DNA from: Podospora anserina
Taxonomy: Eukaryota
Length of the DNA: 33,406 nt
Assembly: GCA_017654855.1 (NCBI GenBank)
Contig: CM030339.1
Coordinates: 62,001-95,406, forward strand
Reading direction: 5' to 3'
The position numbers and the translations under genes are program-made. Every line of letters begins with the position of its first letter. The first letter of the stretch is position 1. The notes under the pieces are model-generated. The model saw only the letters and a list, made by a program, of their open reading frames with translations. It did not search any database and was not told the origin of the DNA. This document shows positions 628-33,333 of this stretch, piece by piece.

Positions 628-2310
628 ATGAATATTACCTTAATACTTTTTTTAATAGGAATTTTAGGATTCGTATTAAATAGAAAAAATATTATATTAA
701 TGCTTATTTCAATTGAAATAATGCTATTAGCTATAACATTCCTAATATTGGTAAGTTCACTTAATATGGATGATATAATCGGTCAAACTTATGCTATTTA
801 TATAATAGTTGTTGCAGGTGCAGAATCTGCTATAGGTTTGGGTATTTTAGTTGCTTTCTATAGATTAATTAACTCTCCTGATAAAAATCCAAGATCAAAT
901 TATTCTTATTCACATTTTAATTTATTACCTACAATTTCACGGCGAAGTCGTAATTTAATCCAATCAAGGAATTATTCTAGCCTTTCGCCTAGGACTAGCG
1001 CTGTATGCAGTGTTAGATCAGAGGGTGAAAGGAAAATAGTTTTAAATCCTTCATTTATAAGTGGGTTCTCTGATGCTGAAGGTTCTTTTGTTGTAACTAT
1101 TTTAAATAATCCTAGATATAAAATAGGATGAAATGTACAAGCTAGATTTCAAATAAAGTTACATGAGAAAGATAGAGCTTTATTATTATTAATTCAAAAT
1201 TATTTTTATAATGTTGGATATATATCCACCCTAAAGGGTGGATCTACGGTTGAATTTAGAGTTAGTGATATAACTAGTTTAAATAATATAATTATACCTC
1301 ATTTTGAAAAGTATACATTAATAACTAATAAATATAAAGATTTTATAATATTTAAACAAATTGTATCGTTAATGTCAGAAAACAAACATACTACTTTAGA
1401 AGGGTTAAAAGAAATTTTAGAATATAGAGCATCTCTTAATTGAGGTTTATCTAAAAATTTAAAGGAATCTTTTCCTTCAATAGTACCAGTTAAAAGAGTC
1501 GAAATTGAGGATAATATATTAAGTAATTTACCTTCTAACTGAGTAGCTGGTTTCTCAGCAGGAGAATCCAATTTTTTTATAACTATATCTGGTAATAAAG
1601 TATGATTACGTTTTTCTATAGCTCAAGACTCAAGAGATATATTGTTATTAAAAAGTTTAGTTGAATTTTTTAATTGTGGTTATATAGCTCAATATAAAAA
1701 CCGTAAAGTATGTGAATTTATAGTTACAAAAATTAATGATATAATTATATATATAATTCCTTTTTTTGAAAAATACAAAATTGAAGGTTCTAAATATAAG
1801 GATTATGTTAATTTTAAAGAAGCTGCTATTCTTATTAAGAATAAAGAACATTTAACTGAAAAAGGTTTAAATAAAATAATAGAATTAAAAAATTCTATGA
1901 ATAAAAATGATTAATATTTTCTTGATTAAAAGGAAGTTTTCATCTTGATCACCAAAGGCGAAGTGAACCTTCGTCTAGTCTTATACAAGGCGAAACTCTC
2001 AAATTGCGGGAAATTCTTAAAAACAAATCTACCAAGTTAATATAGTAATATAATTAATGGAACAAGTAATGATTCGTTGTATGGTAAAAACGATTTGTAT
2101 ATATAGAAGATCTGCAGCCAAGCACCAAGTATTCTTGCTACGCAGGAATAACGGTGTGCAGTTAATCGGCTAAATGTGAGTTGGTTTTTATTAATATGGG
2201 CTGCACAAACTAAAGCTCGGATATTAATAATTAGCTTAAGATATAGTCAGTCTCAATATGAGAATATTGAGGTAAAACGAAGAGGAAGTATAGCAATAGA
2301 ATATAAATAA
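628..2310 (+). CDS. nad4L: NADH dehydrogenase subunit 4L; exons 628-866 and 2280-2310 (89 aa)
   Basis: [34 protein letters not shown]...[18 protein letters not shown] joins RGSIAIEYK*. Junction TT|A with exon ending in T and intron in G. Stop TAA overlaps the nad5 ATG by one base (TAATG at 2308-2312). Confidence 0.97.
867..1914 (+). CDS. Double-motif LAGLIDADG homing endonuclease, in frame with nad4L exon 1, intact
   Basis: Open 628-1914 in code 4; motifs [12 protein letters not shown] and [12 protein letters not shown]; typical C-terminus [18 protein letters not shown]. Confidence 0.93.
867..2279 (+). mobile_element. Group I intron in nad4L (IC1-like core)
   Basis: Core elements CAAATTGCGGGAA (~2000), ATCTGCAGCCAAG (~2110), GTGCAGTTAATCGGCTAAA (~2156), TAAGATATAGTCAG (~2237); terminal G2279. 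Confidence 0.93.
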
Positions 2311-5300: not shown

Positions 5301-8300
5301 CCGTCGTTTTTATTCATGGTACTTCTAAATTGACTTCGGTGAATCCTGGAGTTTGGTCTGGTTTAATAGACGGAGAAGGTTCTTTTTCAATAATCTTAGT
5401 TAGAAATTCAACACGTAAATTAGGTTGACGTATTGAACCAAAATTTCAACTTGGTTTACATAAAAAAGATTATGATGTATTATTACAGTTACAGCTTTTT
5501 TTAGGTGGTGCCGGTGGTATCTATTCAGCTCGGAATGGTGAGTTTGTTAACTACATAATTAGTTCTATTAAAGATTTAAATAAACTTGTTGTTCATTTAG
5601 AACATTATCCATTGTTAACTCAAAAATCCGTGGATTTCTTTTTCTTTAAACAAATAATAGATTTAATTAATAATAAAGCTCATTTTACTGTTGAAGGTTT
5701 AAATAAAATAGTAAATCTAAAAGCATCTATGAATTTAGGTTTATCCGATAAGTTAAAATTAGAGTTTCCTGGATATCAAGTCATGGAAAGACCTATTTTT
5801 AATTGTATCGAAGTAGCTGCAAATATAAGTCCTTCTTGGATTTCTGGTTTTGTTAGTGCTGAAGGGAACTTTGATGTTCGTACACCTAAAACAAATAGTA
5901 AAACGGGTTATAGAGTTCAGTTAAGATTTAGGATAACCCAGCATGTTAGGGATATCATATTAATGGAAAAATTAGTTCAATATTTAGGAGGAGGAAAAGT
6001 ATATAAATATACTAGATCTGGTGTTCATTTAAGTATAGTTGATTTCTCCTTAATCACTAATAGAATAATTCCTATATTTAAAGAAAATCCTTTAGTTGGT
6101 GTAAAATCTAAGGATTTTGAAGACTGGTGTAAAATACATGAATTAATGGTTAATCGTTCACACTTAACTATTAAAGGTAAAGAAATTAAATTGGGTATGA
6201 ATAGAGGTAGGAGTATTGAGACAGAGTAAGAAGGTAAGATTAATTAATTTCAAGATTACGTCACTTCGTCTATATGAAGAATTTGCTTTAAGACCCTCGA
6301 TGTAACCGGCGCCATTCAAAAAGTAAACTAGTATAAAATGAGACAAATTGTATGATAAATTTAACAAAAGCATAATCAAAGGTTTTTTAGTTATTTAAGC
6401 TTATTTACATTTATGATGATAATACTTGTAACAGCTAATAATTATTTATTAATGTTTGTAGGATGAGAAGGTGTAGGAGTTTGTTCATATCTATTAGTTA
6501 GTTTTTGATTTACTAGAATAGCAGCTAATCAAAGTTCTATATCTGCCTTCTTAGCTAATAGAGTAGGGGATTGTTTTTTAACAATTGGTATGTTTGCTAT
6601 ATTATGATCTTTAGGTAAACGAAATAATTGTAAAGTTTTCATGAGCTTGCGCCCCACGCACAAGATCAAAAATAAAAAAACTAGCTCATTAACCAAATAC
6701 ACTTTGAGCAATGCTCAAAGATGCTTTCATAAAACAACAAATATTTTAGGTAGTGCTGTACAAGCTAAAGCTTGTACTTCTCATTTTATAGCTTGCGCAC
6801 ATATATCTGATATTCAAATTAGGAAGTATTCTAATTCACCTTTTGCTCCTTATTTAGCAGGATTAATAGAAGGTGATGGACATATAGCTGTACATGATAA
6901 AAATACACAAAAAAAAGAGTACAGACCAAAGATTATTATTGCTTTTAATATTAACGATAAACCTTTAGCTGAAAAATTATCAACAGTATTAGCTGTTGGT
7001 AAAGTAATTGATAGAGCTAGTACAGGACATGTATTATTACAAATTTTGGCTAAAGAAGAAGTATTAAAAATAATTAATTTAATTAATGGTCATATGCGTA
7101 CACCTAAAATAGAAGCACTACATAGAGCTATTCGTTGAATAAATGAAAAAGATAATAGCTCTATACCGTTATTAGGTATAGATTCTTCTCCTTTAGAGAG
7201 TAATAGTTGATTATCCGGATTTACAGACGCCGATGGGTGTTTTGGTATAACTGTATACGATCGTAAGAAAAATGGAGTATTTTTAAGAACAAGTGTTAAA
7301 ACTTCTTTCCGAATAGAAGTAAAACAAAATTATTCCAGAGAGGTTACTTTAGAACAAGATGGGCGTAGCACTAGTTTTTTTTTTATTATGAGTGAAATTG
7401 CCGCATTTTTTACCGTAAATTTATATACTAGAACTAGAAAGACAGAGGATAAAGTATTTTACGCTTTTGCAGCAGTGGCTCATAATTCAAGAAGTCATGA
7501 AATACTTCGTAATTATTTTGATAATTATCCTTTGTATTCATCTAAACATCTAGCTTATAAAGATTGATGTCTTGTTCAAGTTCTTCATAAAGGATCTTTA
7601 AGTAAGGAGAACTTAGAGATAATAAAAGCTATTAAAAATGGGTTTAATACTAAGAGAAAAGTATTTGATTTTTCACATTTGAATTCTTTACAATTTAAAT
7701 AAATTGCCGTGAGAGGTAGGAATATCTCTCTTATTATATAACTATGTGCGGGAAAACCCTAAAGTCTTTTTATAGATTATTGTGGAAACTTTTTATATAT
7801 AACTGCGTACACAAAACTTAAAAATTAAAAAGAATAGAATCCTACGAGCTTGCGCCGTCGTATGGTGACTTTTGCTGCTATGTACGGCGCTATATATAGC
7901 GCTATATATAGCGAGGCGCAAGCTCCTCCTCCTCGTAGGGCTTACTTATATGCTTGCAGACTTCGTACGCATACTTATTTGCGGCGTAGCCGTCAGAAGT
8001 ATAGCTGTCAGAAGCATGAAGTATAGCAGGAACAGTAGGATGAAAATGGACAATCCGCAGGAAACTAAGAATAATTCTAATTTATTTAAGGATCCTCAGA
8101 GACTACACGTTATACGCCCTTTATCCATAATGTTGTGCATACTTCGTCTGCCTAAAACATATGTTGAACAAGGGTGAAAATATAGTCCAGTTATAGCTGA
8201 AAAGTTATAAGTTATTCGAATTTAGATTATAGTACAGTATTTTCATTAGCCCCTTATATTAACAGTAAAGTAGTTCTTATTATAGGTATATGTTTATTAA

Positions 8301-11300
8301 TTGGTGCTATGGCTAAAAGTGTGCGCTGATGAGCTTTATTTTGAAATGGAGATATAATCTCTAAACATTGGTCAAATATGTTTCTGACTACGAAATTAGG
8401 TGGCGGGGAAATCCCAAAGTTGAACATAGCATTTTCGCATAATGAAGAGATTAGATCCAATCATGGGGATCGATTAGCTCTTCTAGTCAAGTTTTCTATG
8501 ATTAAGACTATACTGTTTGAAGTTCATCTACCAGTTGTCTCAAGCCATGGACTTCAGCGTGCCTGAGATAGGCTGAATGCGGCAAACCTTTTTCTTGAAC
8601 TTTTGGATAGGGTTATGGCCTGTCCGCAAACGAATTGCATAAACAATTTCAAGGTAGAGAGTGAACAATCTAAGGAAAACAAAATTCAAAATATATGAAG
8701 ATCAGGATTACCTAAGACTAGAAATAGTTATGGTAACAGAGGAGTAGTATTACCCTTTGTATATTATAACAATATATATTGTCCTTTAAAAAAGGGGATA
8801 AGGGGAAGAACTCTAGATTTTAATTTTAGATTGCTATCCACTAGTGCTGGGAGTCCAGTACAGATAAAATCTAACACTAATGATAAGCTTCTAAAGCTAG
8901 CTAAGCATTGTAAAAAAAATTTTTTAATGGTCAAATCCAAATGGACAAATTATACCGATTAATGTATGATTCAGCACTGTATGAATTGGCATATAAAAAG
9001 CTAGGCGCTAGTTCTGGGCGCAAATTCGGCGCAAGCTCTGGAGGGAATATAAATCAGGCGGGTATTAATATTAAACCCCTTGACCATAACCACTACCCTT
9101 TAGTAGGATCCGCAGAGATGTTATCTGAAGTAATTGAAGGAATTATTGCTGAGTTGAAAGATAGTAGGTTTAGATTTGAAGGAAAAAAGGTAAAAACCCT
9201 AGTAAGTAGACCTCTTACTACTTTTAGAAATAAACTGGTACAAGAGGTAATGAGAATGATTTTAGAAGTTATATTCGAACCAACTTTCTCTGAACACAAC
9301 CATGGGTTTAGGCCAGGAAGGGGGTGTCATTCGGCTTTGAAAGAAATTAAGGCGCAAGCTATAAATTTTGGAGTATCAACCTGATATTTTGAAGGAGATA
9401 TTTCTAAATACTTAGTTACTTGTGCTGACGAAGTTATGCATGCAAGCTCCTCTTTTGTTACTTCGAGACGTGGCGGCGACGGTGGCGGCAAAGCCGCAGC
9501 AGCAGCCGCGCTCGTAAGTTCTCAAATAGAAAGAGTCTTAATGAATATAATTGAAAATAAAATTAAAGACCGTAGGTTTACAGATTTAATATGAAAAGCT
9601 TTAAAAGCTGGATATTTTGAATTTAAAATATTCAAAGATTCAAATACAGGTACTACTCAAGGTGATATACTTAGCCCTATTTTAAGTAACATTTATCTAA
9701 ATGAATTAGATAGATTTATTAGTAAGTTAAAATTAGAGTACGATAAAGGAATTAAACCTAAAGTAAATCCTTATTATAACAAACTTTGTAATATGAAGAA
9801 TAAAACTCTTGATGTACAAACTAGGATCCGTATCCATAAGTTACACTTGAAGACTCCTTATTATAAAACACTAGATCCTAGTTTCAAGAAATTAGTATAT
9901 GTAAGATATGCTAATGTTTGGGTTATAGGTGTTAGAGGATCCAAAGAGGATTGTAACATTCTGTTAGAAAAAATAAAATATTTTTTAAAGATAAATTAAA
10001 TATTGGGGGCGCAAGCTCTCGCGCAAGCTCGAGTTTTGAGCTTGTGCCTAAAACCCTATCTAGTATAACTAATGCTAAAAAGGTCTTATTCTTGGATACG
10101 GTAATATTCAGTAGCTGACACAGAAAACATCAATCTTTGACTTCCAGTTCATCTGGGTTCATGCTAAGAAATGGTAGAGAAATTAGACTTGAAGCACCTA
10201 AACAAATAATACTACAAAAACTAAATGAAGCCGGTTTTATAACTAATGGGAAACCATCTCCTAAATTACTATGACAACATTATAATAAGGACACAATAAT
10301 AACATTATATAATTCTGTATATAGGTATATTAATTATTATAGTTTTGCTGAAAATATTTCCAAAATTTCTTCATGACTTCACTTTATATTAAAAACTTCT
10401 TGTGTGAAATTATTGGCATCCAAATTTAAATTAGGAACTATATGTAAAACTTATTTTAAATTTGGAAAAGATTTAAAAGGAGATAATAAAATCGGTTTTG
10501 TGGATGCGATGGCTTATGGAATAAATATTTGAGACTTTAAGATATCAACTAAAGGTATAATTCAAATCCTATATGCTGGAACAAAAACCTCTAGAGGCGG
10601 AGCCGCGAAGCCGCTAAGGAGCAAAGCCGCGAAGCCAGAAAGCCGCCGCACTAAAATTTAATAAAATTAATGGATTAAAGGTTAAAATAGTGCTTTCGAG
10701 GAGGCTACGTATACGAAGTATGCTTTATATATAGCGCTATATATAGCGCAAGCTCCTCCTCGACATACTTTGTCAGTATGTATGTATGTCAGCACTAATA
10801 TTATTATAACCAGACAGTAATACCACTATATATATAATGCAAACGCTTAGTATATTAAAATTGGAGAGCCGTATGATGGGAAACTATCACGTACGGTTCG
10901 GGAAAAGGTATATATACTGATAAGAGGTATACGTATCTAGTTCATTCTCAAGTAGGTTTACATGTATGATTACCTATGGCGATGGAAGGTCCTACTCCTG
11001 TATCAGCATTAATACATGCAGCTACTATGGTAACTGCAGGTGTATATTTACTAATGCGTAGTTCACCATTAATTGAATATAATAGTACAGTTTTATTATT
11101 ATGTTTATGATTAGGTGCGATAACTACTGTATTTAGTTCTCTTATAGGTCTGTTCCAACAAGATATAAAAAAAGTTATAGCTTATTCCACAATGAGTCAA
11201 TTGGGAATGATGGTTATAGCTATAGGTTTATCATCTTACAATGTAGCTTTATTCCACTTAATAAATCATGCATTTTATAAAGCGCTATTGTTTTTAGGAG

Positions 11301-12465: not shown

Positions 12466-13012
12466 ATGTTACTAATTCTACCTTTAATTATAATATCCAA
12501 AGCTATATATTTTTGTTGACGCACAGATACATGAACTCATATATATTTTATTCAACAATTTACAAGCTCAATACCTTCTTCTGATGCACAGCAGCCTAAA
12601 AATCCTGAACGGGGGTGGTGAAGCTTCTTCTGCTTGGCAACCTAAAAAGCTTGGAGGTAGCGCCCCGCATAAAGGAGTTATAACTGAGTCAGATTTTGAA
12701 TGAGAATCTGAATCAGAAGCTGACTATAAATCAGATTCTGACCATGATGAGTCAGAAGTAAGTAAATTTATTTACAGTCCTACGTTTAAGGAACGTGTTA
12801 ATAAAGCCACTAAGGAAGAGCTAGTTGAAGCTCTAAATGTAATAGAGTTTTCAATAAAATCTTATGAAAATCATAAAGAAGTACCTGCATATAAAGAACA
12901 AATTAGTAAACTGATTGAAAAAGAAAATATATGTAAATCAGCTTTAGAAAATATTGAGCAGGTTAAATTTTTAGAAGAAGAAAATAGTAAAGGTAAAGGT
13001 AAGGATAATTAA
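12466..13012 (+). CDS. Orphan ORF of unknown function (hydrophobic N-terminus, acidic tract, coiled-coil-like C-terminus); start uncertain
   Basis: Frame open 12494-13012 in code 4 (ATG 12584): GGEASSAWQPKK...ESDFEWESESEADYKSDSDHDESE...KEQISKLIEKENICKSALENIEQVKFLEEENSKGKGKDN*. An overlapping frame from ATG 12466 could join it at G-run 12611-15. Confidence 0.5.
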
Positions 13013-13146: not shown

Positions 13147-13612
13147 AATAAGCCCGGCAAGCTGTATATAATATATAATAATAAAGGGTAAATCTTATTG
13201 CTATATAATCATTTTATGATTATATAACAAAGTGATTATTATTATAAAAAAAATGTAGAGGATAAGGATTTAATTTATACACGAACTCTCAATATAAAGT
13301 CAGTACGCCTATTACCACTAAAGTGCAGGCTGTTATATTTATACTAAGATGTCTGTTTAGAATCCAAATCTTATGTAGATTTGCTGCTTGCGCCCGGGCT
13401 GGCTGGCAGGTGGCTACGCCGCATCAGCTGCAGAAGAAGGCGCGACCAGGCTACGCATGTACGACGGCGCATGTCTGTATGCTTGCTGTTATTTTTTTTT
13501 TAGATTCTATATAACATGTATAATGATATAATATAATATTATATAATAATATTTCAATATAGAATAAATTGTATTTTATTATTTTTTTGTTTTTTTAATT
13601 AATAAATTAGTT

Positions 13613-16600
13613 ATGAATTTTGATGCTCCCAGTCCTTGAGGTATATATTTTCAAGATAGTGCTACTCCTCAGATGGAAGGGTTAAATGAATTACACGATA
13701 ATATAATGTATTATTTAGTAGTTATATTATTTGCTGTAGGATGAATTTTATTATCTATAGTTATAAACTATGTTAGTACAAAATCACCAATCTCACATAA
13801 ATATTTAAATCACGGTAGAGATGTGCCTATTCAAAAGTGTTTTAAGTTTAAAGGTAACTTGCGCTTGGTAAATAATAACAATAAATATATACGTTCTTAT
13901 AGTACAACATCTTCTTCAGGTCCTAAGACCAAGTCGCTAGGCCTGTCCCAAAAGGACCATAATAGTATAAAATTGTATCAAGATCCTTATTCAATGAGAA
14001 AATTAATTATAAAAGATAACAAAAATAAATCTGGTATCTATAAATGGACCAATAAATTAACTAATGATATATATATTGGACAATCAGTTGATTTATCTAA
14101 AAGATTTATAAGATACTTTAATATGAGTTATTTGAAAAATAGAGAAACTCTTATAATAAGTAGAGCTTTGATTAAATACGGGTATTCCAACTTCCAGCTT
14201 GAAGTATTAGAATATTGTGATATAGCTGATTTAACAGAAAGAGAACAATACTATCTTGATAAGTTAAATCCTAAATACAATATTTTAAAAAATAGCAGGT
14301 AGTTCTTTAGGACATAAACTAACAGAAGAAACTAAAGCTAAAATTAGTAAATCTTTAAAAGGAATATATGTAGGAGAAAAATCTGCTTTATATGGTCGCA
14401 CTCATTCTGAAGAAACTAAAGCACTCATGGCTCTAAATAAGTTAGGGGCAAATAATTCATTATTTGGTAAAACCCATTCTGAAAAAACTAAAGAGTTAAT
14501 GGGACAAAAAGCTTTAGGTAGAAAACATTCTGAAGAAACTCTATTAAAGATGAGTGCTAGCAGAGGTTATCTTGTTAACATATATGAAAAATCTGATTCA
14601 AAAGGGTTTCAATTAATAGGTAGTTTTGTTTCAATAAGAAGAGCTGCCAAATTTTTAGGAATTAGTAGTAATACTATAAGACTCTATATAAATTCTGGTA
14701 AAATATTTAAAGATAGATATAAGTTTACTAGCTAACGAAGTACACGCAGGAATAAATACCAAATAAATTTAAAAAAACTATGAATAAAATTCCACTATAT
14801 GCTGGAAACTCCTAAAGCCTTCAGGTACTATAAAGATAATAGATATATACTTTATCAGTGATAACCCTAAAGGATGTACAATGGATTATCAGCAGGAAAC
14901 CAAGACCTTGGTATTCTGCCGCCACCTGTGGTGGCAGGACACTGAGGGTGGGGGGGGGAGCGCTGCGCCGCCCTCGGTACTAAATACTTTGGATCCTCAG
15001 AGACTACACGTGGAAATCAAAGGTCGACGACGTCGACATATAAGATAAGATATAGTCCAGTTAAGTATGAAAGTACTTATGTTGTAGACATTAATCGAAT
15101 TAATATGAACTATTACTCCAGCAGTAATATTAATATTAATTGCTTTTCCTTCTTTTAAATTATTATATTTAATGGATAAAAGTCTTACTTAAGTCCATCG
15201 TACAATCTAATCCTTGTATGATTAAAGAGGATGAATTTCAAGAAGAGCTTGCCAAATGCAAGGTTACTTGAAGCGAAGCTTGTTAAGTAGATTTTCAGTT
15301 TATACTGATTAAAATAAACAAGAATGTTCAACGACTAGAAGATGAAATCTATCTACAGAATAGTCTTCATATGCTTTAGATTTATATAAGGGAATTAATA
15401 CATTATATAAATTAGCTATAGTTTCCTCCGTCAATTTTTAAATATAAAGTAAAAACCTTTTTTAATTGATGATGACATAGTCTGAACCATATTGAAAAAT
15501 ATGGAGTAAAAGATAAAGATTATCTTTAACAGTTTTGAAAGTTAATGAGAGTTTTACTAGGTCAGCTTATTTTGAATATAAGCTGAAGGATAAACATATA
15601 TTGATTATATTAGCTTGCTTATTTGAGTTGTTGATATTACAACTAAAAAAATTTATATTTATGCTTGCCCTAGATAATTTTTATCAAGACAGGCAAGCTA
15701 CATCGAAAAATTATAATTTAAAGATTTCGAGATCGCGCCTTAATAAATTATACTCTAAAAAAAATATTTTTTTTAAATCTACTTATAGAATGTATAGTAC
15801 ATTGTTTACAGATAAAGAACTAGCAGTTATGGGTTTATCTTCACTACATCCGTATGCGACTACGTCGGAAGATGAAATTAAAAATTTTTATGCATGATTT
15901 GCGGGCTTTACTGATGCTGAAGGTTATTTTTACATAGCTATCAGTAGCAGTTGTGCTTTTAGATTTCAAATTAATTTACACAAAGATGATATGCATGTAC
16001 TATATTTTATTCAAAAAAATTTAGGATTTGGTGAAGTTAGGTCTTATAATAATTATTCATCTTTTACCGTAACAAGACTTAAAGATGTAAAAAAAAATTA
16101 ATTGTTATTTTTTTCTCAATATCCCCTTCAAGGTTCTAAGTGACTTAATTATAAAGACTTTGCTAAAGCTTTTGAGTTGTATACTAATTCACGCTACGCT
16201 GCGGATTCTAATCTTTTAAAAGAAATTTTGGAAATAAAAATGGTATGAATAAATTAAGATCTGATTATACTTCCCTTAAAAGAAATTAATATAACACCTT
16301 ACTGACTTTTAGGTTTTATTGAAGGAGAAGGTTGTTTTAGTATTAATAAAGGTAATAGCTATAGATTAGATTTTAGTTTAACACAAGCATATTCTAATCT
16401 GGAATTAATGAAAAAATTAAAAGTTATCTTGAGAATCTCCCAAATGCTGGAGGTAACTATGCCAATGCTTTAGGTATATCTATAATTAAGTATAGTAATA
16501 TTAATCACCAGTCTACTGTTAGAATTGAGACTACACGTATACCTTATATTACAAATATTTTAATACCCTTTTTAGAAAATCTAACTTGACATAGTAAAAA

Positions 16601-21233: not shown

Positions 21234-21268
21234 GAGGTATCTAAAAGATATCGAAAGCCGTCCATACA
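21234..21268. repeat. 35-bp direct repeat, copy 1
   Basis: GAGGTATCTAAAAGATATCGAAAGCCGTCCATACA, identical at 22157-22191. Confidence 0.9.
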
Positions 21269-21418
21269 GTTCTGACATTAAGCCCCTTATGAGTGCAAAT
21301 TCATAGGAGGGAATTCATTAAAGATTTTAAGCTATACAGCTACTATCTCAAATTAGAAAAAACTAATTTTAATTAGTGAAGTCCTGGAAATGTGGTTAAA
21401 AAGCAGTTTGATGTTCGC

Positions 21419-21459: not shown

Positions 21460-22156
21460 TTGAAATTGTTATGTTATACAAAAAAATTAGATAAAATTTT
21501 ATTTATCCTCCTCGTGTACTAATTGATGGATGAAAATAAGTAAAAAGAGTACCTCGGAGAAAACCGGAATCCTAAGCCTGGTGTCGAGCTGTGAATTTGA
21601 GAGGGTAACCGATCAAACAATAAACTCTAAGTTAGAAAAATAAATAAATAAATTCCGGTAATTTTCCAATTTTCCTGCGAAGCCGAGGGGTAATCCTCAA
21701 TTTTTAAGAGCTCGCGCCTAATAGAGTCTTTAAAAAGTGTATGACACACATACTCCATAGTACAAAAATATTGTTATAAAGGATACCTTTGACCTAGGCA
21801 GGCTTCTAAACCCTCCGGGATATGAAGTAGAGCTCGAAAGTAATTATACGAATCACTTCAGGCGCAAGCTCGACCCAATATCTCCCACTATATCACTAAC
21901 CACTATGATAAAAAGATATCTTCGGATACTTATGAAGTTATCTGGTTAGGTTATGTATAGTTGCGATGTGCTGGGAAGAAAGTGGTATGTTAATACGGAG
22001 CGAGCTTGCGCCGCGCCACATGGTTATATAGGTTGGTTTGGGATACCCTATGGGATAATTTAGAGCATAATATAAAAAATGAAAAGAGTAAGGTACAGGT
22101 CAGGACGTATAATCACGCCGTACACTGCGAACTAACTCGTCACAAAAAGCTGGCTG

Positions 22157-22191
22157 GAGGTATCTAAAAGATATCGAAAGCCGTCCATACA
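22157..22191. repeat. 35-bp direct repeat, copy 2
   Basis: Identical to 21234-21268. Confidence 0.9.
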
Positions 22192-22432
22192 TACTTCGTC
22201 TGCTATATATTGTGCTATATATAGCGCAATCTCCTCCCCCCTCCTCCTCCTCCTCGCACACACCATATCATGCTTGTGCCTGCTTGAGGTGCAAGCTCAA
22301 TATTTACATCTTCCTATGCTCTGGCATAAGTTTAAATTAATATATAAGGCTGCGCAAGCTAAAGCTCTTATTATTTAAACTTAGAACTTGATACTTTTAT
22401 ATCAGTATTATTTCTATTTTTTCATAATTTAT

Positions 22433-22585
22433 ATGCCTCAATTAGTCCCATTTTATTTTGTTAATGAAATAACATTTACTTTTATTATACTTGCTATAAC
22501 TGTGTATATTTTATCTAAGTACATTTTACCTAGATTTGTTCGTTTATTCTTATCTCGTACTTTTATATCTAAACTTTTAGGATAA
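22433..22585 (+). CDS. atp8: ATP synthase subunit 8 (50 aa)
   Basis: [17 protein letters not shown]...[21 protein letters not shown]; diagnostic MPQL start. Confidence 0.98.
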
Positions 22586-22720
22586 ATAAAAAGGCTACTG
22601 CTCCTGCAGCTAAGCGCAAGCTAAAGCTAAGGAGCTCGCACAGGCAGGCTGGCGGCGTAGCCGCAGCAGCAGAGGTACAAATTGAGGATATTGGTCTTTT
22701 TTTGGCGCTATACGTAGCGC

Positions 22721-22781
22721 GGCGCCATATATAGCGCTATATATAGCGCTATATATAGCGCAAGCTCCCCCTCCTCCTCCT
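22721..22781. repeat. Composite dispersed repeat: (GCGCTATATATA)n palindrome + GCGCAAGCTC + (CCT)n
   Basis: Related copies at ~7886-7933, ~10727-10761 and ~22213-22254. Confidence 0.8.
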
Positions 22782-22915
22782 CTTATTATATAAACATATG
22801 AAACCTCATACTCATAACTAACATAGAGAGTTATCGTTAATGGTAACATTTCATGAGGTTACTTTTTTATTAGCACTTTTTTTTTGATTATGTTTTTAAT
22901 TTTTATATCTTTATT

Positions 22916-25900
22916 ATGTATTATTCTATCATTATTTCATTAATTGAGGTTGTATTGGTATTAGTTCCTGCCCTTTTAGGTATAGCTTATGTTACAATTG
23001 CGGAAAGAAAAACTATGGCAAGTATGCAAAGAAGATTAGGTCCTAATTTCGTAGGTCGCACACACAGCGTCTCTAGTTCTTTTAAAAAATATTATCATAC
23101 TTCTACAACTGATAAATTAATAAATGGTTTATATTTAAACAGAAAAGCTCCTATTAAGCCTTTTAAAGACAATGTAATTAAAACTTGTGAGGATTTATTG
23201 TCTCCTTCGGATCTTAAGACTTTTTTCAGAAGTATTAAAAGTAAAGGGGGTATATATATATTTACTTACAAAGAAAATCCTGAGATTTTTTTATAGGAAA
23301 GAGCTAAAAATTTTAGAAATAGATTTAAAGCTCATCTTAATATAAATTTACAAGATAAATTTCATATTTTTGCTAATGCTGTAGGTTGAGATAAATTTCA
23401 TTTTTCAATTATTCAGATTTGTAGTTTAGATATTCAAAAAGAAAGAGAGAATTATTTACAAAAAAAACTTACCTTTATTAAATACAATATATAAAAAAGT
23501 GAGATGTATACTATACAAAATTACGACTCTTTACATGAAATATTAAAACTTAAACAATTAGAATGAAACAAAGATAATAAATATTCAGGTATACCTGTCT
23601 ATTTATATACTTATAGTGAAGGATCACTTAAGGATAACTATATCAAATTCGAGAGTATTAATAAATTATCTCAATATTTAAATATAAGCAGAGAAACTAT
23701 AAATATTTATTTAAATACTTATGTTCCTTATAAAAGCAATATTTTTTTAACTGATTTAATAGTAGATTTTGAATTAATAGACAAATTAGTAAGTGATACC
23801 ATTCAAGGATTAGATTTAGATCGTACTATAAGTAAAAAAGTCTGAGTTTATTCTATAGATACAAAAAGTAATATTGTTAAAAACATTTATAATTCTATAG
23901 GTGAGACAATTAAAATTTTAAATGTGTCACATAATTTAGTAAATAATCACTTAGATAAGTGAATACCTGGTGGTATTAAAAAAACAATTATTTATTTAGT
24001 AATGAATTGGATAATTTAAATATAGAAAGATTAAAAGAAGTTCATTTATCTAGAAAACATAATAACCTTAATGTTTGAATATATAATGCTAATACTTTAG
24101 AATTAATAGGTAATTTTAATAGTATAAAAAAAAAAAAGCAGATTATTTTAATGTAGATTATAGATCTTTAATTAATCATTTAGATACTAAAGAAGCTATA
24201 AATAAAGGAGGTAAATTTATATATTTATTTAAAAATGAGTTAGATACAGAAGATTTAAATCTTTTATCTAATAAATTTAATAAAGTTTCTAATATGACAA
24301 CTAGTATTTGAGTATATAAATATGTAGATGATAAATTAACTTTAATCAATGACAATAAACCTAGCTATATTTCTAAATTATCTTTATCTAAAGATTTAAA
24401 AATAAGTGTTAAAACAATAAACAAATATTTAGATTCAAATGAATCATATAAAGGGTATTATTTTTATAGTATATGTAAATAATAGTAAAAATAAAGCGTA
24501 GGAAACTTTATTTGGCCTTTAAACCATCAAATTGACGGGGAAGCCTTAAAGCTATTTAGACTAAGCAAAATAAGTAATTAAGTTGTGGCTCGAAAGAGGT
24601 ATAGTAACACATAAATAGATGCACGAAAGGAAATAGGTAATCCGCAGCCAAGTGCCATATATTTATTGTATAAGTAATGGTGTGCAGTTCATCGACTAGA
24701 CGGTGGTTGGTATTATTGTTCACATAATACTTAAGATATAGTCAGACCCTATCCGAAAGGATACAGGAATATTTATATAATATTCTGTTAAATGGATAAT
24801 ATTTTTATTATTCAGGAGAAGGCCCCTGCCTAAATCTACAGTATGATTTTTTTTTTATACATGATTAAAAGGGGAGATTCGTATTATGGACTACTTCAAG
24901 CCTTTGCCGATGCTTTAAAACTATTATTAAAAGAATATGTAGCACCAACACAAGCTAACATAATCTTATTCTTTTTAGGTCCTGTTATTACATTAATTTT
25001 TTCTCTTTTAGGTTATGCAGTAATACCTTATGTCCATAGGGTTATATAGTCAAACTACGGGGAACTCCTAAAGCTTATAGTACTAAACTAGGTACGAAAG
25101 TACTTAAGTGGCTGAAGTAATTATTCGGGTATAGTAATAAGTTATAAGATGATCAGAGGGGGGCGCAAGCTCGCTCTGAGAAATGGACAATCGCGTATCT
25201 AAGTCAGTATTAAGAGAGCTCGCGCCTATAATACTGTAAAAGAGCAACGAGCAGACGGCTATAGGTATTTATAATATTATTGTAAATATTTAAGGTGTGC
25301 TCTATAAGCTTAGAAATAAGTTATCGTAAATTGTATGGTAAAAATAATAGCGGTTCACCATTAATTGAAAAGGCTGTACGCCACTCTAATTCTTTAAAAG
25401 TTAATTTTCGTCGTAATTATTCTACGACGACGTCGAAAAATAAAAGCGACGAACGCCTCGCACAAGTAAATCCTTGATTTATAACAGGATTTACCGACGC
25501 TGAGGGTTGTTTTATGTAATATGATAAAAAAAACCTAAATATAAAGCAGGTTGAGAAATTCAACCCGTTTTCCAAATTAAACTCCACGTTAAAGATTTTT
25601 TTTTTTGTTATATTAGGAATTCAACGTAGTTTAGGAGATATTGGTACTGTAGTTAATCGCCAATCTACATGTGTACTTTTAGAGTCAGAAAATTGCAAGA
25701 GCTAATAGAATTAATTAAATTTTTTGATAAGTATCCTTTAATTTCTCTCCGGCCCCGCGCCATCGAGCGAAGCGATGGCGCGAGGGAGAAAAAAAGGGGA
25801 TTATCTATTATTTAAACAAATTGTTTCTATTATCCTATTAAAAGAACATTTGACTACTAAAGGTTAACAAAGAATTATTAATGTAAAAGCAACTTTAAAT

Positions 25901-28900
25901 TTCGGGGCGCAGCGCTCTCAAAAGAATTACAATTAATGTTTCCTGAAACTATTCCAGTTGCCCGTCCTTTAAGAGAACCTTGCGTAATTCCGGATCCACA
26001 GTGAATATCTGGATTTACGTCAGGCTTTACACCCCCTACAATCTTTATATGGATTTACATTTAACGATGGCGGGCCTTATCTTATTTAAGGGAAATTGTG
26101 AAATACAACTACAAGGATATGTATGGTTTTATACCTTCTTTCAGGAAGAATCTCTGGGGTTTTAATGCGATGAATTTTAATCGTGTTAAAATCCCTTCCT
26201 CCCCTCTATTCAGGGGACTTAATTACGCATTTAGAATTAATACCTTAGGTTTTTTAAAAATCAACCAGCTTAAACAGTTTAGATCTAAAAGCACCCATTG
26301 TAAAAATTTAGCCGTAAATGAAATAAAGCAGATTACTTCGTTGGTAGTTTGAGGTATTAATTTAACGTCTACAGTGGGTATGGAGAGATTTACAAAGGTA
26401 GTACGAAATATGATTCAATTACCTTCTTATCAAAAAAGTGTTATTGTAGGATTAATTCTATCTGACGGTTGACTAAGATTTTCGGCATCGCCCTAAAAGT
26501 CATAAGAGTCCCCTTATAGGTTTTACTCAATCTTTAGCTCATTCTGACTATGTTTGATTTGTATTTTCTTTTTTATCTCATTATTATGATAATATGCCTT
26601 TGTTTAAGCAAGGTATAAGAGCTGGTAGACTTTTTTATAGCTTAGAAATTGTAACTCGTGCCTTGCCTTGCTTTTTGGAGTTATATGAAATTTTTTATGT
26701 TAACGGAGTAAAAGTAGTCGGCTTCGCAGGAAAATATTTATGAATTGTTAACACCTGTAGCTTTTGCTCACCTTATTCAAGGGGATGGTGGATTTAAAAG
26801 TAAAGGAATTTATCTTTGTACCGACTCGTACACTCTTCAAGATGTAATACGGTTAATGAATGTGTTAATTATACGTTATGAATTAAAATGTACTCTTCAT
26901 AAAGCAAGTAACGGTAAGGGTTACAGAATTTATATTTCTAGAAGCTCAGTAGGTAAAGTAACGAAAATAGTTTTACCTCATCTTATACCCAGTATGTATT
27001 ATAAAGTAGGTTTAGTTAATAATGAGAATAGTTAATAATGGGAATATAGTTTTCGTGCCTCAAACTTGTTGGAGTAAATATACAAAATAAGTTTGTCTTA
27101 CAATCCTATCCCATATAGCTAAAAAAAAAGAGATAAAAATCTTACATGGTGATTTTTCTAGCTGACGAAGTAAGCATACCTCCAGCCACCCTAAGGCGCC
27201 TAATAAATACAACGGCGTCCAGGGTATTTATTAGGGTAATTTCTCTGTTTCTTTAGATAATGGTATTTTTAAGTCTCTTCTCGCGGCCCCGCACCATCGA
27301 GCGAAGCGATGGTGCGAGGGATTTAAAATTACTCAGCATGAAAAAGATGAGTTATTATTAATTGCAATTAAAGATTATTTAAATTGTGGGTATTGTTATT
27401 TAAGAAAAAAAGAAAACAAGGGCGCAAGCTCGATTTTAAAGTTACTAAGTTTTCTGATATTACTGAAATTATAATACCTTTTTTTATTAATAATCCAATA
27501 TTAGGTATAAAATCTTTAGATTTTAAAGATTGATGCTTAGTTCCGGAAATAGTAAAAAAAAGAGAGCATAAACAAGAAGAAAATATTCTAAAAATAAAAG
27601 AAATTCAAAAGGGTATGAATAGGGGAAGAAGTTTTTAAATTTTTTATTATTACTTTTATATAAGTATGGACCTGGTCTAGCTATTAATGATTTTAGCTTA
27701 GGTATTTATTATATCTTAGCTGTATCTTCATTAGCCACATACGGTATACTATTAGCTGGATTTTATCCTTTAAAAAAAAGTTCTTCATTTGTAGAAACAA
27801 ATGATAAAAATCCGATTGAATTTCAAGAAAAGCTTATAATAAGTCAACTTGAAGCGAAACATATTTTCTTTATAAAAACATTAATTTTAAGGTATGGACG
27901 TTCAACGACTAGTATATTATTAAAAATATTAATAGTTCTACCAAGAGCAGTCGGGGTTTTAAATGGGTTTTTTTTATCGTTCAGTTCTTAAGTACAATAT
28001 CTATAGAATATAATTTGACCTGATCGTATAACATTTTTTATTCGTTATTTATTTGTTTTGTATTAAGTTTAATATCTGTGTTAATTTATGGCTGCACCGT
28101 TCTTCTTGTTTTTTTTAGCTGCATGATTTCGCCAGCAGCATTGTTGTTATTAAATACTAGCACTCATTACGCAAATAAATCAAAGAATAAGGCTAATACT
28201 ATGTCCAAGTTATCAACTGTTAAGCTTAGTATTCCTTATCACTATGCGGGAGGCTTCGCAGGGAATAGTAATAGTAAACTGAAACGCTTTTATTCTACCT
28301 GTCGGCCATCTAGCACAGGGGTGTTAAACAGTATTAGGTGAAAAGCTAAAAAAAAGTTATTCTACCACTGGGAGTGATTTTTTAAATAATGATGAGTTTA
28401 ATTTAGATAAGGAAAACATTAACAATAGTATTAAATATTTAGATGAAGAAGATCTAAAAGCTTTACATTCTTTGTATATAAAGGATTTATTTAAAGATAG
28501 AATAGCTCCAGTAGTTCCTTTTGATTCTAATTTAATTTTAGTTTCTTGTAATTTATCAGACCAAAAAAAAAAATCAGAATTCTTAAAACAATGAGGGTCA
28601 AAAGGTGGTATATATATTATGGAATACATACACAATCCACATATATATTATATAGGTAGAACTACTCTTTTAAAAGAAGAATTAATAACCATATTAAAGC
28701 TGATTCTAACAGTAAGTTTCATGCTTTTTTTAAAATTAGTTGGTTTAGAACACTTTAAATTTTCTATAATAGAGATTTCTTCTTCTAGTGAACAAGGAAT
28801 TCGGGAAAATTATTATCTTCAAAAATTTTTACCTTTATTGAATACAACCTTTTCTTCAGCTTTTTCTGAATCTACTATATTTAGGAGTTTAACTGATAAA

Positions 28901-31900
28901 ATAACTAGTTTAAAAACTACAACATTAACGCCGAAAAGCAATCAACCTATTACTATTTATACTTACTCTTTGCATAAACAAGGGGATCATGAGGCAATAA
29001 ACCCCGCTTATATTAAATATAATAGCATAGGTGAAGCAAGTAAAATGGAAAAAATTGCTTATGGAACTATTTTATTATTTAGAGATACTAATCTCCCCTT
29101 TAGAGGTAAATTATATTTTACTAAGCCTATAATAGATTTTAATTATACATTAGACAAAGTTAATAATATATTAAAAGATGTTAAGTTAGTAAGTAATATA
29201 GCTACAAAAGTATGAGCATATGACGCTTTAACATTAGATTTAATAAAGGGTAGTCCTTTTGAATCTAAAACTCAAGCATCAAATATATTAGGTATTAGTC
29301 GTAACGTTATTAATTATTTTATAGATACTAAAAAGCTGAAGGGATTAAAGGGACTTATTTGTTTAGTAGACCGTTAGAGGAGTTAGAAATAACAAGTTTA
29401 AGAAAACTTTCAAAGGATGTTACATTAGGTAATAAAATAAAAGTGTATGCTTATAATGCTATAACTTTGGATTTAATAAACAATGAACCTTTTTCTAGTT
29501 TATCTGATACAGCTGATTATTTTAATGTTAATTATAGAACGATAACGCGCCATTTGGACACTAAATTTGCTACAAAACAAAATAACATGAGCGTGTACTT
29601 TTTTAAAAAGGTGGTTGATTCTAATTTAAAAATAGAATTAATGAAGCAGACAGATAAGCTTCGTTATACTCGTAGTGAAATTTGAGTCTATAAATTAGAT
29701 AAACAAGGTAAATTAATATTGTTACCTGATCAGCCTTTTAAAACTAAGCGTGAAGCTGTACGTGTATTGCATATGCATCATACTGTAATAACTAAATACA
29801 TGGATACGGGGACAGAGTATAAAGGCTTACTTTTATATAGTACACCTCAAAATAACGATTATTAAACCGTGTTAAATTATTCACTAGTTTCTTATTATAT
29901 TCTTACAGTTAGCGTTTTTAAGCCTTCCTTAATAAAGGTTATTTAAGACTAAGACATAGTCTGAACCAGTTCGAAAGAACTAGATGTAAAACATAAATAG
30001 TTTTACGATAACAACATTTGGAAGTGCTAATAGTAAATATGCTTTTTTAGGATCCTTAAGAAGTACAGCTCAATTGATTAGTTATGAATTAGTTTTAAGT
30101 TCTGCTATACTTTTAGTAATTATGCTAACTGGAAGTTTAAATCTTAGTGTTAATATAGAATCTCAAAGAGCTATTGGAATATATTTCCATTATTGCCTGT
30201 ATTTATTATATTTTTTATAGGTTCTGTTGCTGAAACAAACAGAGCCCCGTTCGATCTCGCAGAGGCTGGTTTAAAATATCATATAATCTTAGCTTATTAT
30301 TATATTACAACCGTATTTATTTCAATTACTAGATTAATAATTATTAATTATATTTATAATATCACTATTATTAGGAATATTTACAATAATTTTAGTACAC
30401 TACGTACATTTTACAAATTACACTATGCATCTGGAAAGGTAAACTTTAAAACATTCATAAAATTATATAGTTCCTTAACTCTCAAAGATAGTTCACTACA
30501 CCCTGAATGAATAACAGGTTTCACAGATGGGGAAGGTTCCTTTGGTATTAAGATTTATAAAGCTAAGGGCCACAAACTAGGATGAAGATTAGATCCTTTT
30601 TTCCAAATTAAATTAAATGCCCGAGATCTAGATATATTATATCGTATCAAAGAATATTTTGGAGGAGTAGGAACTATAAGTTTTGAGAAAAATACGGCTA
30701 AGTATATTATTAGAAAACTTAGTGATATTGTAGATATTTTGATACCGCATTTTGAAGCTTATCCTCTATTAACTAAAAAATTTGCGGATTTCGAATTATT
30801 TAGGCAAATTATTTTAATTATAAAAAATGAATCTTCTTTAAGTGAACAAGGATTTATAAAAATTCTTAACCTTAGATATTATCTGAATAAAGGAATATCA
30901 GAGGAATTAAAAGAATTATATCCTAACTTAGTACCAGTAATGAGACCTGAAGTTCCAGAAAGAAAAATCCAACCGGAATGATTAGTAGGATTCATAGATG
31001 GGGAAGGTAGTTTTAATATAATTACAGTAGAGAAAAAGTCTTCAGATGCACCATCAATACTTAGCACTAGTTACAAAGTATGATTACATTTTCAAATAAC
31101 ACAACATAGTCGAGATACTACTCTCATGGAAAGAATAGTTACATTTTTTGATTGTGGTAGTGTTAAAAAAAGAAACACCGATGCTGTTGACTTTAAGTTA
31201 AATAAATTCGAGTTGTTAGAAAACATAATTATACCTTTTTTTCAAAAATATCCACTTCAAAGTGCTAAAGTTTTTGATTTCTTATCTTTTATTGAAGCTG
31301 CCAATGTGATTAAAAGTAAAAAAACTCGTCAGTGAACTGCAGAAGAATTTGCTAAAATTCAAAATATTCAAAGTAATATGAATAAATACATCAAAGAAAA
31401 TCAAAACAAAAAACAGGATGATGAAAGTAATAAAGGTAAATAACTACCACGGTAATGGCCATATTTAATGCAGTATTTCGTATGTACTTCGCAGGACTGG
31501 CATTTAATTACTAATAATAGTTACAACTAAACTTTATTTACTCTCGAGGGCTACCAGCCTACCCTCAGCCACCGTTTTTTATTCTTTAACCTTCTACTAT
31601 ACTACGTTAGTGGTATGTATGGAGAGCTCTAAATAATAAATTTTTAGGTGACGGCCGAGGTATCTTAATTTTTGTTAGGTTATAGATTTTTGATTAGCGT
31701 TAAGATAGTATAAATATTGATTTAGCTGAGGCTATTTAGTAAACAATACGATTCGGTCTCGTAAAAAATTGCTATATGCTGGAAAACCCTCGATCTAAGA
31801 TCGAAGACAATCAGCAGGAAACCAAAGTAATTTATTAATATTTTAATAGTTACGAGTAGGATCCTCAGAGACTATACGCAATAATTAAGTAAAAAATATT

Positions 31901-33333
31901 GTACTTAATAAGATATAGTCCAACCTTGCATGTGAATGTAAGAAGTATGTATAGGGATTAGGTTTACTCAGCTATAATAATAGCAAAACAAATAATTACC
32001 TTCGTAAACATTTAATTAATGCACGAAGATACTATTCTACTTATTCTGATTCATCTCCAGATCCTATATCTACTCCTTTACCTATAAAAATTTTTAGTAA
32101 TTTAGATAATAACGAAGTAGTTATTTCTTATGCTGAAATATTAAGAAAGAAAGCAGGTATTTATTGTTTTATAAATACAGTAAATAATAAAAGGTATATA
32201 GGTAGTGCTAAAGATTTGTATTTAAGACTTATTGAACATCTTGCTGGTAAAAAATCTAATATTGCTTTACAAAATGCCATATTAAAATATGGTTTAAATA
32301 AATTTGATTTTTGCGTATATGAGTACTTTACTTATCACAGTAAAGTAGTAAGTCATAAAGCTTTAACTGATTTAGAAACAAGTTATATTGAAAAATATCC
32401 TTTTGACAGCTTGTATAATTTTATGAGAACAGCTACAAGTATTGAAGGATATAAGCATACAGATGAAGCTAAGTTAAAAATGTTAAATAGGTTTAAAGAT
32501 AAATCTAATCACCCTATGTATGGTAAGAAACATACAGAGGAAACCTTAAAATTGATTAGTAAACCTGGAGAATTAAATCCTATGTACGGTAAGTTACATA
32601 GTGAAGAAACAAAGAAAAAGATAAGTAATAGCATGAGCAAACATCCTTACGGAGTAGGTATATATGATTTAGATGATAATTTAATTGCAAAATTTCAAAA
32701 TAATATTGAATTATCCTTTGAGTTACTCAAACAATATATCTAAAGTTACAGTAGGGAAATATTTAAATTCAGGCCTTATTTACAAAAACCAGTATAGGTT
32801 TAAAGTAAATAATAAATAATAAGATCAAGTTTTAATCTTCTTGTTTATATACATTACATATGGAATCAGAACTTGTTAGTGGATTTATGACAGAACATGC
32901 TGCAGTAGTTTTTGTATTCTTTTTCTTAGCTGAATACGGAAGTATTGTTTTAATGTGTATACTTACAAGTATTTTATTTTTAGGGGGTTATTTGTCAATA
33001 AATAGTTTAGATGTCTTTAATTTTTTTTATTCTATCCTTTTTAATATAGGATTTATTGATCTTAATTTTTTTAATATATTTTATTATTTCTATAAAGAAA
33101 TTTTTGTTAATAATTCTATTATAGAAGGATTAATATATGGATTAACTATAGGATTAAAAAGTTCTATTTTAATATTTCTTTTTATATGAGTAAGAGCTTC
33201 TTTTCCTAGAATACGTTTCGATCAATTAATGGCTTTTTGTTGAACGGTTTTATTACCTTTATTATTTGCTTTAATTGTTTTACTTCCTTGTATATTATAT
33301 AGTTATAATATTTTACCTGTTAATGTTTTATAG
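22916..33333 (+). CDS. nad1: NADH dehydrogenase subunit 1; exons 22916-23056, 24882-25028, 27665-27761, 30021-30267, 32863-33333 (1-nt frameshift at 30174-75)
   Basis: [32 protein letters not shown]...VIP|YGP...[18 protein letters not shown]...[25 protein letters not shown]...[15 protein letters not shown]; stop TAG. Confidence 0.96.
23057..24482 (+). CDS. GIY-YIG endonuclease with four C-terminal NUMOD1-like repeats; multiple frameshifts in A/T runs
   Basis: In frame with exon 1; [38 protein letters not shown]. Confidence 0.82.
23057..24881 (+). mobile_element. Group I intron nad1-i1 (IC1-like core)
   Basis: Core CAAATTGACGGGGAAG (~24528), GTAATCCGCAGCCAAG (~24637), GCAGTTCATCGACTAGACGG (~24684), TAAGATATAGTCAG (~24732); ends G24881. 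Confidence 0.93.
25750..25787. repeat. 38-bp GC-rich hairpin element, copy 1 (copy 2 at 27284-27321)
   Basis: CGGCCCCGCGCCATCGAGCGAAGCGATGGCGCGAGGGA vs CGGCCCCGCACCATCGAGCGAAGCGATGGTGCGAGGGA. Confidence 0.9.
26098..27035 (+). pseudogene. Inner LAGLIDADG endonuclease (LAGLIDADG_2-like family), two frameshifts near 26490 and 26725
   Basis: [67 protein letters not shown]. Confidence 0.85.
27762..30020 (+). mobile_element. Group I intron nad1-i3; core split by an internal ORF
   Basis: Interrupts T|GA (Trp); GAATTTCAAG, CTTGAAGCGAA and GTTCAACGACTAG at 27818-27912; AAGACATAGTCTGAACC at ~29951; same core type as cox2-i2. Confidence 0.92.
28201..29865 (+). CDS. Free-standing GIY-YIG endonuclease with four NUMOD1-like repeats; several frameshifts, mostly in A/T runs; start uncertain
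   Basis: [47 protein letters not shown]; homologous to the nad1-i1 ORF. Confidence 0.82.
30268..31443 (+). CDS. nad1-i4 ORF1: intact double-motif LAGLIDADG endonuclease in frame with exon 4
   Basis: [12 protein letters not shown] and [12 protein letters not shown]; no TAA/TAG until 31441. Confidence 0.93.
31955..32819 (+). CDS. nad1-i4 ORF2: GIY-YIG endonuclease with NUMOD3 repeats, no ATG before the catalytic domain; frameshift near 32730
   Basis: [49 protein letters not shown]; frame opens right after TAG 31952-54. Confidence 0.88.

Follow-up and report, generated by a model that had tools for sequence, protein, structure and literature searches.

Seven reading frames in the introns of a stretch of Podospora anserina mitochondrial DNA (assembly GCA_017654855.1, contig CM030339.1, positions 62,001 to 95,406 of the forward strand; the whole 33,406 nucleotides are referred to here as the window) carry the five-residue motif R-x-Y-S-[T/S/N]. 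The same motif recurs ahead of the catalytic domains of intron-encoded proteins from three unrelated families, the LAGLIDADG and GIY-YIG homing endonucleases and the reverse transcriptase (RT)/maturases of group II introns, and the observation extends well beyond the window. In its general form, R-x-[Y>F>L]-S-[T/S], 10–45 residues (sometimes more) before the catalytic domain, the motif is predicted, with a probability of roughly 0.5, to be a maturation signal cut by MPP (the mitochondrial processing peptidase) together with the aminopeptidase Icp55. We infer both the cleavage of the motif and its assignment to MPP and Icp55 from the sequences and from the published consensus of the two enzymes. 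As a release signal, the motif may explain how intron enzymes are freed from the host protein to which they are fused. The peptidase interpretation appears to be partly supported and to be the best available reading of the motif.

The window (~30% G+C, TGA translated as tryptophan) holds the genes for tRNA-Arg, nad4L, nad5, cox2, nad4, and nad1, with intron reading frames in all five of nad4L, nad5, cox2, nad4, and nad1. These frames belong to the Pfam families LAGLIDADG_1, LAGLIDADG_2, GIY-YIG/NUMOD, and group II RT/maturase, and the carriers of the motif pass the curated Pfam cut-off for LAGLIDADG_1, for GIY-YIG with NUMOD1/NUMOD3, or for RVT_1 with Intron_maturas2; on its own, the 77-residue piece of nad1-i2 scored no Pfam family. 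Under the intron names of the initial annotation, and counted without exact mapping of exon borders, there are 14 intron reading frames, seven with the strict motif, three with a relaxed form (RLLST, KLYSS, and KYYHT), and four with neither (nad5-i1, AKFST; nad5-i2, FRLSS; nad4-i1, HPLST; and the LAGLIDADG_2 remnant of nad1-i2). A six-frame motif scan placed all seven strict copies at exactly the positions given in the initial annotation and located its three relaxed forms as well (Table 1). The further claim that every copy lies upstream of a catalytic domain held in most respects, as the seven sites precede a LAGLIDADG_1 or GIY-YIG domain in Pfam by 10 to ~105 residues, but the nad1-i2 copy faces an unscored, broken remnant and the RFYST at 28285 is off-frame from the GIY-YIG domain.

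The strict motif is far more frequent in the window than composition predicts. The six-frame scan returned nine strict matches on the forward strand and none in the three frames of the reverse strand. Among the 35 forward-strand frames of at least 100 residues (7,743 residues), six matches were present, compared with a mean of 0.23 and a maximum of three in amino-acid shuffles that kept composition, and none of 2,000 shuffles reached six; the seventh copy, in a 77-residue frame, falls outside this count. Because the motif had been defined after being seen, all gapped patterns of three and four residues in the window were also ranked, and R.YST came 11th; the patterns above it were all fragments of the LAGLIDADG and NUMOD3 signatures.

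The motif is conserved in the orthologues of the nad4L-i1 protein, in which a poorly conserved linker joins the Nad4L exon to the LAGLIDADG domain. The set comprises 120 listed of 411 matches, with 88 distinct linkers and source names that include Diaporthe, Trichoderma, and Epichloe. The linkers range from 40 to 96 residues with many insertions and deletions, and within them stands an island at which R (0.95), N (0.75), Y (0.97), and S (0.85) are conserved, followed by T or S, compared with 0.03–0.5 in the flanking columns. R.[YF]S[STN] occurs in 70 of the 88 distinct linkers, and most of the other 18 are off by one position. AlphaFold2, run on the nad4L-i1 alignment, assigns a per-residue confidence (pLDDT) <50 and no secondary structure to residues 82–135, with the motif at 114–118 and the LAGLIDADG fold beginning at residue 141. 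The description of the surroundings of the motif as a basic, serine-rich linker was borne out, and for nad4L-i1 this linker is thus predicted to be disordered.

The pattern recurs in all three families, in sequences that had played no part in defining the motif. Among 120 listed of 553 GIY-YIG homologues of nad1-i4 ORF2, 90 have at least 50 residues before GIY, and of these 71 have the strict motif and 82 have [RK].[YF]S[TSN]; the median distance from motif to GIY is 43 residues, and the leader ahead of the motif is unalignable and 9–79 residues long. Of 263 longer matches among the group II RT proteins of mitochondria, 120 were listed, and of these 39 possess the strict form, 53 possess R.[YF]S[TSN], and 74 possess a relaxed form, ~30–35 residues before the start of the RT domain, and the strict motif occurs 39 times in the 9,549 residues upstream and once in the 66,340 residues downstream. 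The relaxed RLLST of the window aligns with this site, where its homologues show R-x-[YFL]-S-[ST] and the window RT lineage has the form R-[LME]-L-S-T. Some of the listed RT proteins are fused to nad, cox1, cox3, nad6, or atp6 exons (precomputed Pfam domains), and among their source names are Basidiomycota, Mucoromycota, a red alga, and a sponge. Across an alignment of 25 RT sequences, the motif arginine is at least 90% conserved. Among 150 LAGLIDADG representatives of 50%-identity clusters, 124 were assessable, 28 with the strict and 46 with a relaxed motif, located a median of 21 residues before the domain, at a density of 3.68 per 1,000 residues upstream and 0.03 downstream.

A metagenome sample of 80 loci (770 kb of mitochondrion-like DNA, scanned with locally built profiles) contained the strict motif in nine of 79 assessable LAGLIDADG frames (six of 43 clusters; relaxed, 20 of 79) and in 56 of 119 GIY-YIG frames (seven of 29 clusters; relaxed, 68 of 119). 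An unbiased set was assembled from one representative per 60%-identity cluster, picked by name and not by motif, with the clusters containing a window protein omitted. Upstream of the domains in these 92 non-window lineages (41 LAGLIDADG, 26 GIY-YIG, and 25 RT), R.YST ranks first among all gapped patterns (13 observed, 0.073 expected), with R.YS and YST next. Spacing between motif and domain varies across the carriers from 10 to >80 residues, and a minority of the GIY-YIG and LAGLIDADG carriers have lysine in place of the arginine.

The bacterial and phage relatives of these proteins present a different picture. None of 80 bacterial group II RT loci has the strict motif or R.[YF]S[TSN] upstream (one has a relaxed form), and none of 70 phage-type GIY-YIG frames from a viral collection has either (two have a relaxed form); four further loci of that collection, with at least 48% identity to the query, were set apart from the phage count as probable mitochondrial DNA. 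In bacterial RT proteins the start lies a median of 21 residues ahead of the RT anchor, and the predicted new N-terminus of the mitochondrial RT proteins, ~30 residues before this anchor, falls within ~10 residues of the bacterial start; in the phage-type frames the first methionine lies a median of seven residues before the domain. Judged by these comparisons, the motif is specific to mitochondria. Within the viral collection, contigs L161, L162, and L163 have ~30% G+C and GIY-YIG frames 48–65% identical to the fungal mitochondrial query, and look like mitochondrial DNA filed as viral.

The occurrence of the motif in three unrelated families, as the initial annotation had it, was confirmed, and among 35 motif contexts no pair from different families showed similarity at E ≤ 1e-3; the nine similar pairs within families were all RT. 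The absence of similarity across families gives no support to a shared leader module that moved between them and makes such a module unlikely and repeated acquisition plausible. A convergent origin of the motif in the separate families is therefore a plausible reading of these sequences.

The yeast Icp55 processing consensus is RX(Y/L/F)|(S/A)(S/T), and in this ‘-3R’ class MPP cuts two residues past the arginine and Icp55 then trims one residue (Carrie 2015). The initial annotation had linked the motif to MPP followed by Icp55, and the motif fits this consensus at every specified position. The highly conserved arginine lies three residues before the predicted mature N-terminus, and the residue that Icp55 would remove is tyrosine in 88% and phenylalanine in 12% of 262 distinct contexts selected with R.[YF]S[TSN]. 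At the predicted new N-terminus, serine is followed by threonine or serine in the nad4L-i1 orthologues; a subfamily of GIY-YIG proteins with His-Thr-Thr is an exception. The 20–25 residues ahead of the motif carry a positive charge and almost no acidic side chains: aspartate and glutamate account for 1–4% of the 20 residues upstream in the 262 contexts compared with 9–13% downstream, the share of lysine and arginine is 33% at position -10 and 32% at position -1, and net charge is +3.8 upstream versus +0.7 downstream of the motif (p = 3.5e-6). The consensus for MPP with Oct1 (the ‘-10R’ class), RX|(F/L/I)XX(T/S/G)XXXX| (Carrie 2015), is a poorer fit than that for Icp55, as the predominant tyrosine is outside the Oct1 set F/L/I and serine or threonine occupies position +5 in 41% of contexts.

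If the motif is read by these peptidases, an intron protein would be translated in the matrix either fused to the upstream exon and an intron-encoded peptide or with a short leader, MPP would recognise the basic, acid-poor stretch together with the arginine and cut between x and tyrosine, Icp55 would take off the tyrosine, and the mature enzyme would start with Ser-Thr or Ser-Ser, rid of the upstream peptide. There are likenesses to known substrates beyond the consensus itself. Presequences of the ‘-3R’ class share the basic, acid-poor upstream segment and a site N-terminal to a folded domain, and internal sites at which R-x-aromatic parts two functional units have been described in yeast Arg5,6 and Atp25, and NifD is cleaved accidentally at such a site. 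MPP cuts the internal RSY of the Arg5,6 polyprotein, where Icp55 is predicted to trim the product (Friedl 2020), and its cleavage of NifD depends on R98 and Y100 (R98-x-Y100) and takes place even in E. coli, without import (Xiang 2020). Unlike Arg5,6, Atp25, and NifD, which are imported, the intron proteins would have as their upstream part a respiratory-chain exon or an intron-encoded peptide. A wider and more tentative proposal, which the same comparisons make possible though somewhat doubtful, is that MPP and Icp55, known only for imported proteins, also mature organelle-made proteins, and that three unrelated selfish families, spread by source name over fungi, a sponge, and a red alga, would each have gained R-x-Y|S-T as a portable release cassette suited to any exon or intron context, even the inside of another endonuclease gene.

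Several observations weigh against maturation by MPP and Icp55. The motif is not universal: in the unbiased scan its strict form is present in four of 41 LAGLIDADG, five of 26 GIY-YIG, and eight of 25 RT lineages (relaxed, 11, eight, and 16), so that its presence is limited to between a quarter and two thirds of lineages, and it is missing from the four window frames listed above. Many of the motif-less lineages have near variants (e.g., RRNYSQ, RSYHTT, RRYYVT, and RNFTT). Motif-less linkers are also acid-poor (5.4% aspartate plus glutamate, compared with 3.3% in those with the motif), and composition is therefore only weakly specific. The His-Thr-Thr subfamily (R-x-[YF]-H-T-T) puts histidine where Icp55 prefers serine or alanine. 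Although Arg5,6 is cut internally, the cut also needed a strong N-terminal presequence, and the authors suggest that MPP is loaded at the import channel (Friedl 2020); this weighs against the proposal because fusions translated in the matrix have neither a presequence nor import-channel loading. For yeast, a 2026 preprint continues to assign the excision of maturases to the m-AAA protease Yta10/Yta12.

The resemblance to a presequence is also incomplete. The initial annotation had described the linkers as presequence mimics, which is too strong: no amphipathic helix was detected upstream of the motif by hydrophobic moment (maximum 0.493, compared with 0.535 for the segments' own shuffles) and AlphaFold2 predicts no helix in the nad4L-i1 linker, which speaks against full mimicry, and at most the peptidase-recognition part of a presequence would be mimicked. 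In contrast to ‘-3R’ presequences, which have an N-terminal position on proteins imported through TIM23, the carriers are encoded in mitochondrial DNA and translated inside the mitochondrion, with no import. The site is internal, after host-exon sequence, in most of the LAGLIDADG carriers and in the RT matches with a host-gene Pfam domain, and serine is nearly exclusive where nuclear precursors have serine or alanine.

It had further been claimed that the motif serves release from hydrophobic exon fusions. For two families this is consistent with the frames, as 12 of the 16 LAGLIDADG carriers whose upstream frame is long contain a membrane-helix-like stretch and many of the RT proteins have host-gene domains, but 43 of 67 motif-bearing GIY-YIG frames have no more than 45 residues from the preceding stop codon to the motif and are not exon-fused. 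The need for release is thus less obvious for these frames, which count as a further point against the proposal. A review notes that some internal intron frames are exon-fused by alternative splicing, and by analogy the short-leader GIY-YIG frames might be fused to an exon in this way.

Three other explanations of the motif were weighed. That it is a by-product of AT-rich composition bias, of an inherited shared leader module, or of a constraint on the DNA or intron RNA is very improbable, even though AT-rich coding sequence often encodes R, Y, S, T, and N and large clades, such as a 68-member GIY-YIG cluster, inherit the motif. Chance and AT bias were ruled out by the shuffles, the strand asymmetry, the pattern ranking, and the scan of the 92 non-window lineages, and motif density is at least 100-fold lower downstream in the same RT and LAGLIDADG proteins. 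Codon use addresses a nucleotide-level element: the window copies have the arginine codons AGG, CGT, AGA, and CGC and the serine codons TCT and AGT, and 66 distinct contexts from other loci have AGA (45), CGT (10), AGG (nine), and CGA (two) for arginine and TCN (59) and AGT (seven) for serine, so that four arginine codons and both serine codon families are in use. The prevalence of TCT, in 50 of the 66 contexts against a background of 33%, might suggest common descent or a constraint at the nucleotide level, but the differing codons between copies point to a constraint on protein and not on DNA or RNA. Rfam places two group I cores, one group II domain, and one tRNA in the window, with no feature at any motif, and an RNA- or DNA-level element was rejected. 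Taken with the leaders' lack of cross-family similarity and the conserved island within the indel-riddled nad4L-i1 linker, these results largely refute the by-product explanation, and the motif is, by all of these measures, selected at the amino-acid level.

Selection on the protein leaves two functional alternatives to cutting by MPP and Icp55. The motif could be functional but uncut, serving in docking or regulation at the enzyme's N-terminal edge (a chaperone site, a membrane-avoidance signal for the nascent chain, a phosphorylation site, or a nucleic-acid contact). Consistent with this, the conserved block of the RT proteins runs on downstream of the motif (consensus RxYSTxxG...KLxxLxxxC) and the motif is found in short-leader, non-fused GIY-YIG proteins without an obvious need of release. 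This is nonetheless a distinctly unlikely explanation, since three unrelated folds have five residues in common and nothing else, the spacing to the domain is variable, the segment is predicted to be disordered, and the bacterial and phage relatives work without the motif. Cleavage by another mitochondrial protease, whether m-AAA at the ribosome exit, Lon/Pim1, or some other enzyme, is also unlikely, if less so. It would fit fusions made in the matrix without the N-terminal presequence on which the internal cut of Arg5,6 depended. To our knowledge, specificity for R-x-Y-S-T is not known for m-AAA or Lon, and the fit of the motif to the MPP/Icp55 consensus would go unexplained. Yeast m-AAA acts at the same step, the release of maturases from Cox1 and Cob fusion precursors, but the available parts of the sources describe no sequence motif for it, leaving the conserved R-x-Y-S-T unaccounted for. 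The splicing defect of m-AAA mutants may, moreover, be an indirect result of the loss of the mature ribosomal protein bL32m, and translation is poor in the yta10 null mutant (2026 preprint).

The yeast mitochondrion-encoded proteins Cox2 (Imp1/Imp2) and Atp6 (Atp23) lose an N-terminal leader, as is proposed here for the intron proteins. Those leaders, unlike the intron proteins as envisaged here, are cut by different proteases on the intermembrane-space side, at sites not known to have R-x-Y-S-T. How intron proteins are processed has been called an obvious gap (Edgell et al. 2011), and in a 2021 review of organellar introns the words protease, proteolytic, and peptidase are absent. A full-text literature search turned up neither a report of the motif nor a paper that connects MPP or Icp55 to proteins encoded in introns, with most subscription journals and supplements outside its scope, such that an older or tabulated mention is possible; a match to ‘MPP’ in a rust mitogenome paper was the abbreviated title of a journal in its reference list. 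Because the conserved motif points to two candidate enzymes and to a precise site of cleavage, this long-standing gap becomes directly testable. Were the proposal true, the intron proteins would be the first mitochondrion-encoded substrates of the import peptidase, mobile elements would have adapted repeatedly to a host protease, and it could be predicted where hundreds of homing endonucleases and maturases truly begin, which would be useful for fungal mitogenome annotation and enzyme expression.

Table 1. Copies and variants of the R-x-Y-S-[T/S/N] motif in the intron reading frames of the window.
Motif	Positions	Strand	Context
RNYSS	967..981	+	Linker of nad4L-intron LAGLIDADG protein, frame 559-1914; 30 residues ahead of LAGLIDADG_1
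RKYSN	6821..6835	+	nad5-i3 LAGLIDADG protein, frame 6365-7702; ~10 residues ahead of first LAGLIDADG helix
RLLST (relaxed)	8828..8842	+	Group II intron RT/maturase, frame 8186-8962, continued in 8914-9999 and 9957-10661
RSYST	13892..13906	+	GIY-YIG protein of cox2-i1, exon-fused (cox2 exon 1); frame 13568-14302, continued in 14289-14735; 46 residues before GIY-YIG
RMYST	15787..15801	+	cox2-i2 LAGLIDADG frame 15517-16101, degenerate; 38 residues before LAGLIDADG_1
KYYHT (variant)	23087..23101	+	nad1-i1 frame, 13 residues past the end of nad1 exon 1
RNYST	25412..25426	+	nad1-i2, frame 25286-25519; LAGLIDADG-type string of broken remnant 17 residues further on
RFYST	28285..28299	+	nad1-i3, frame 27913-28389, distinct from the frame of the GIY-YIG protein
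KSYST (second copy)	28352..28366	+	Start of nad1-i3 GIY-YIG frame 28328-29377
KLYSS (relaxed)	30460..30474	+	nad1-i4 ORF1, LAGLIDADG, 30154-31443; 17 residues before LAGLIDADG_1
RYYST	32027..32041	+	nad1-i4 ORF2, GIY-YIG, 31955-32743; leader ≤24 residues, no exon fusion

Several features of individual carriers were apparent. The RFYST and KSYST copies of nad1-i3 are 67 nt apart in different frames, neither of which is continuous with a nad1 exon, and each is preceded by K-L-K; a check for tandem duplication found the two joined only by a 10-nt exact match, TTATTCTACC, coding Y-S-T. The group II RT/maturase is split over its three window frames, although a database protein (P0241) that is 99% identical to the middle piece is intact at 760 residues, and the breaks may be strain differences or homopolymer sequencing errors. 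The mitochondrial group II intron proteins (P0241-P0360, alignment A3) share the string ‘GLPK..N.YGNR..VVP’ ~30–40 residues upstream of the motif, which may represent conserved domains of the intron RNA that are translated as the exon-fused frame reads through them. In the GIY-YIG subfamily of the nad1-i1 type, represented by the window KYYHT and by loci L035, L010, L007, and L019, R-x-[YF]-H-T-T replaces R-x-Y-S-T at the place of KYYHT and is followed by a conserved ‘LYK.R.AP.KPF’ block. In L061:8672.. (+) and in P0414, a LAGLIDADG frame begins within the N-terminal part of a GIY-YIG protein, just past ‘GGI(Y)’, and has an RYYST or RHYST of its own ahead of the LAGLIDADG domain, one endonuclease gene being nested in another.

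Elsewhere in the window, the extra strict matches RKYSN (2283-2297) and RPYSS (21259-21273) lie outside intron proteins, in frames of 20 and 40 codons just before the start of nad5 and just after nad4, respectively, and are probably due to chance, at about the number that chance would give. The closest of the listed database proteins are orf261 of P. anserina (99% identity) and an ‘ND4L i1’ protein of P. comata (93%). Between nad5 and cox2, a 172-codon open frame (12494-13012, +) encodes an acidic product rich in serine, glutamate, and aspartate with no Pfam match.

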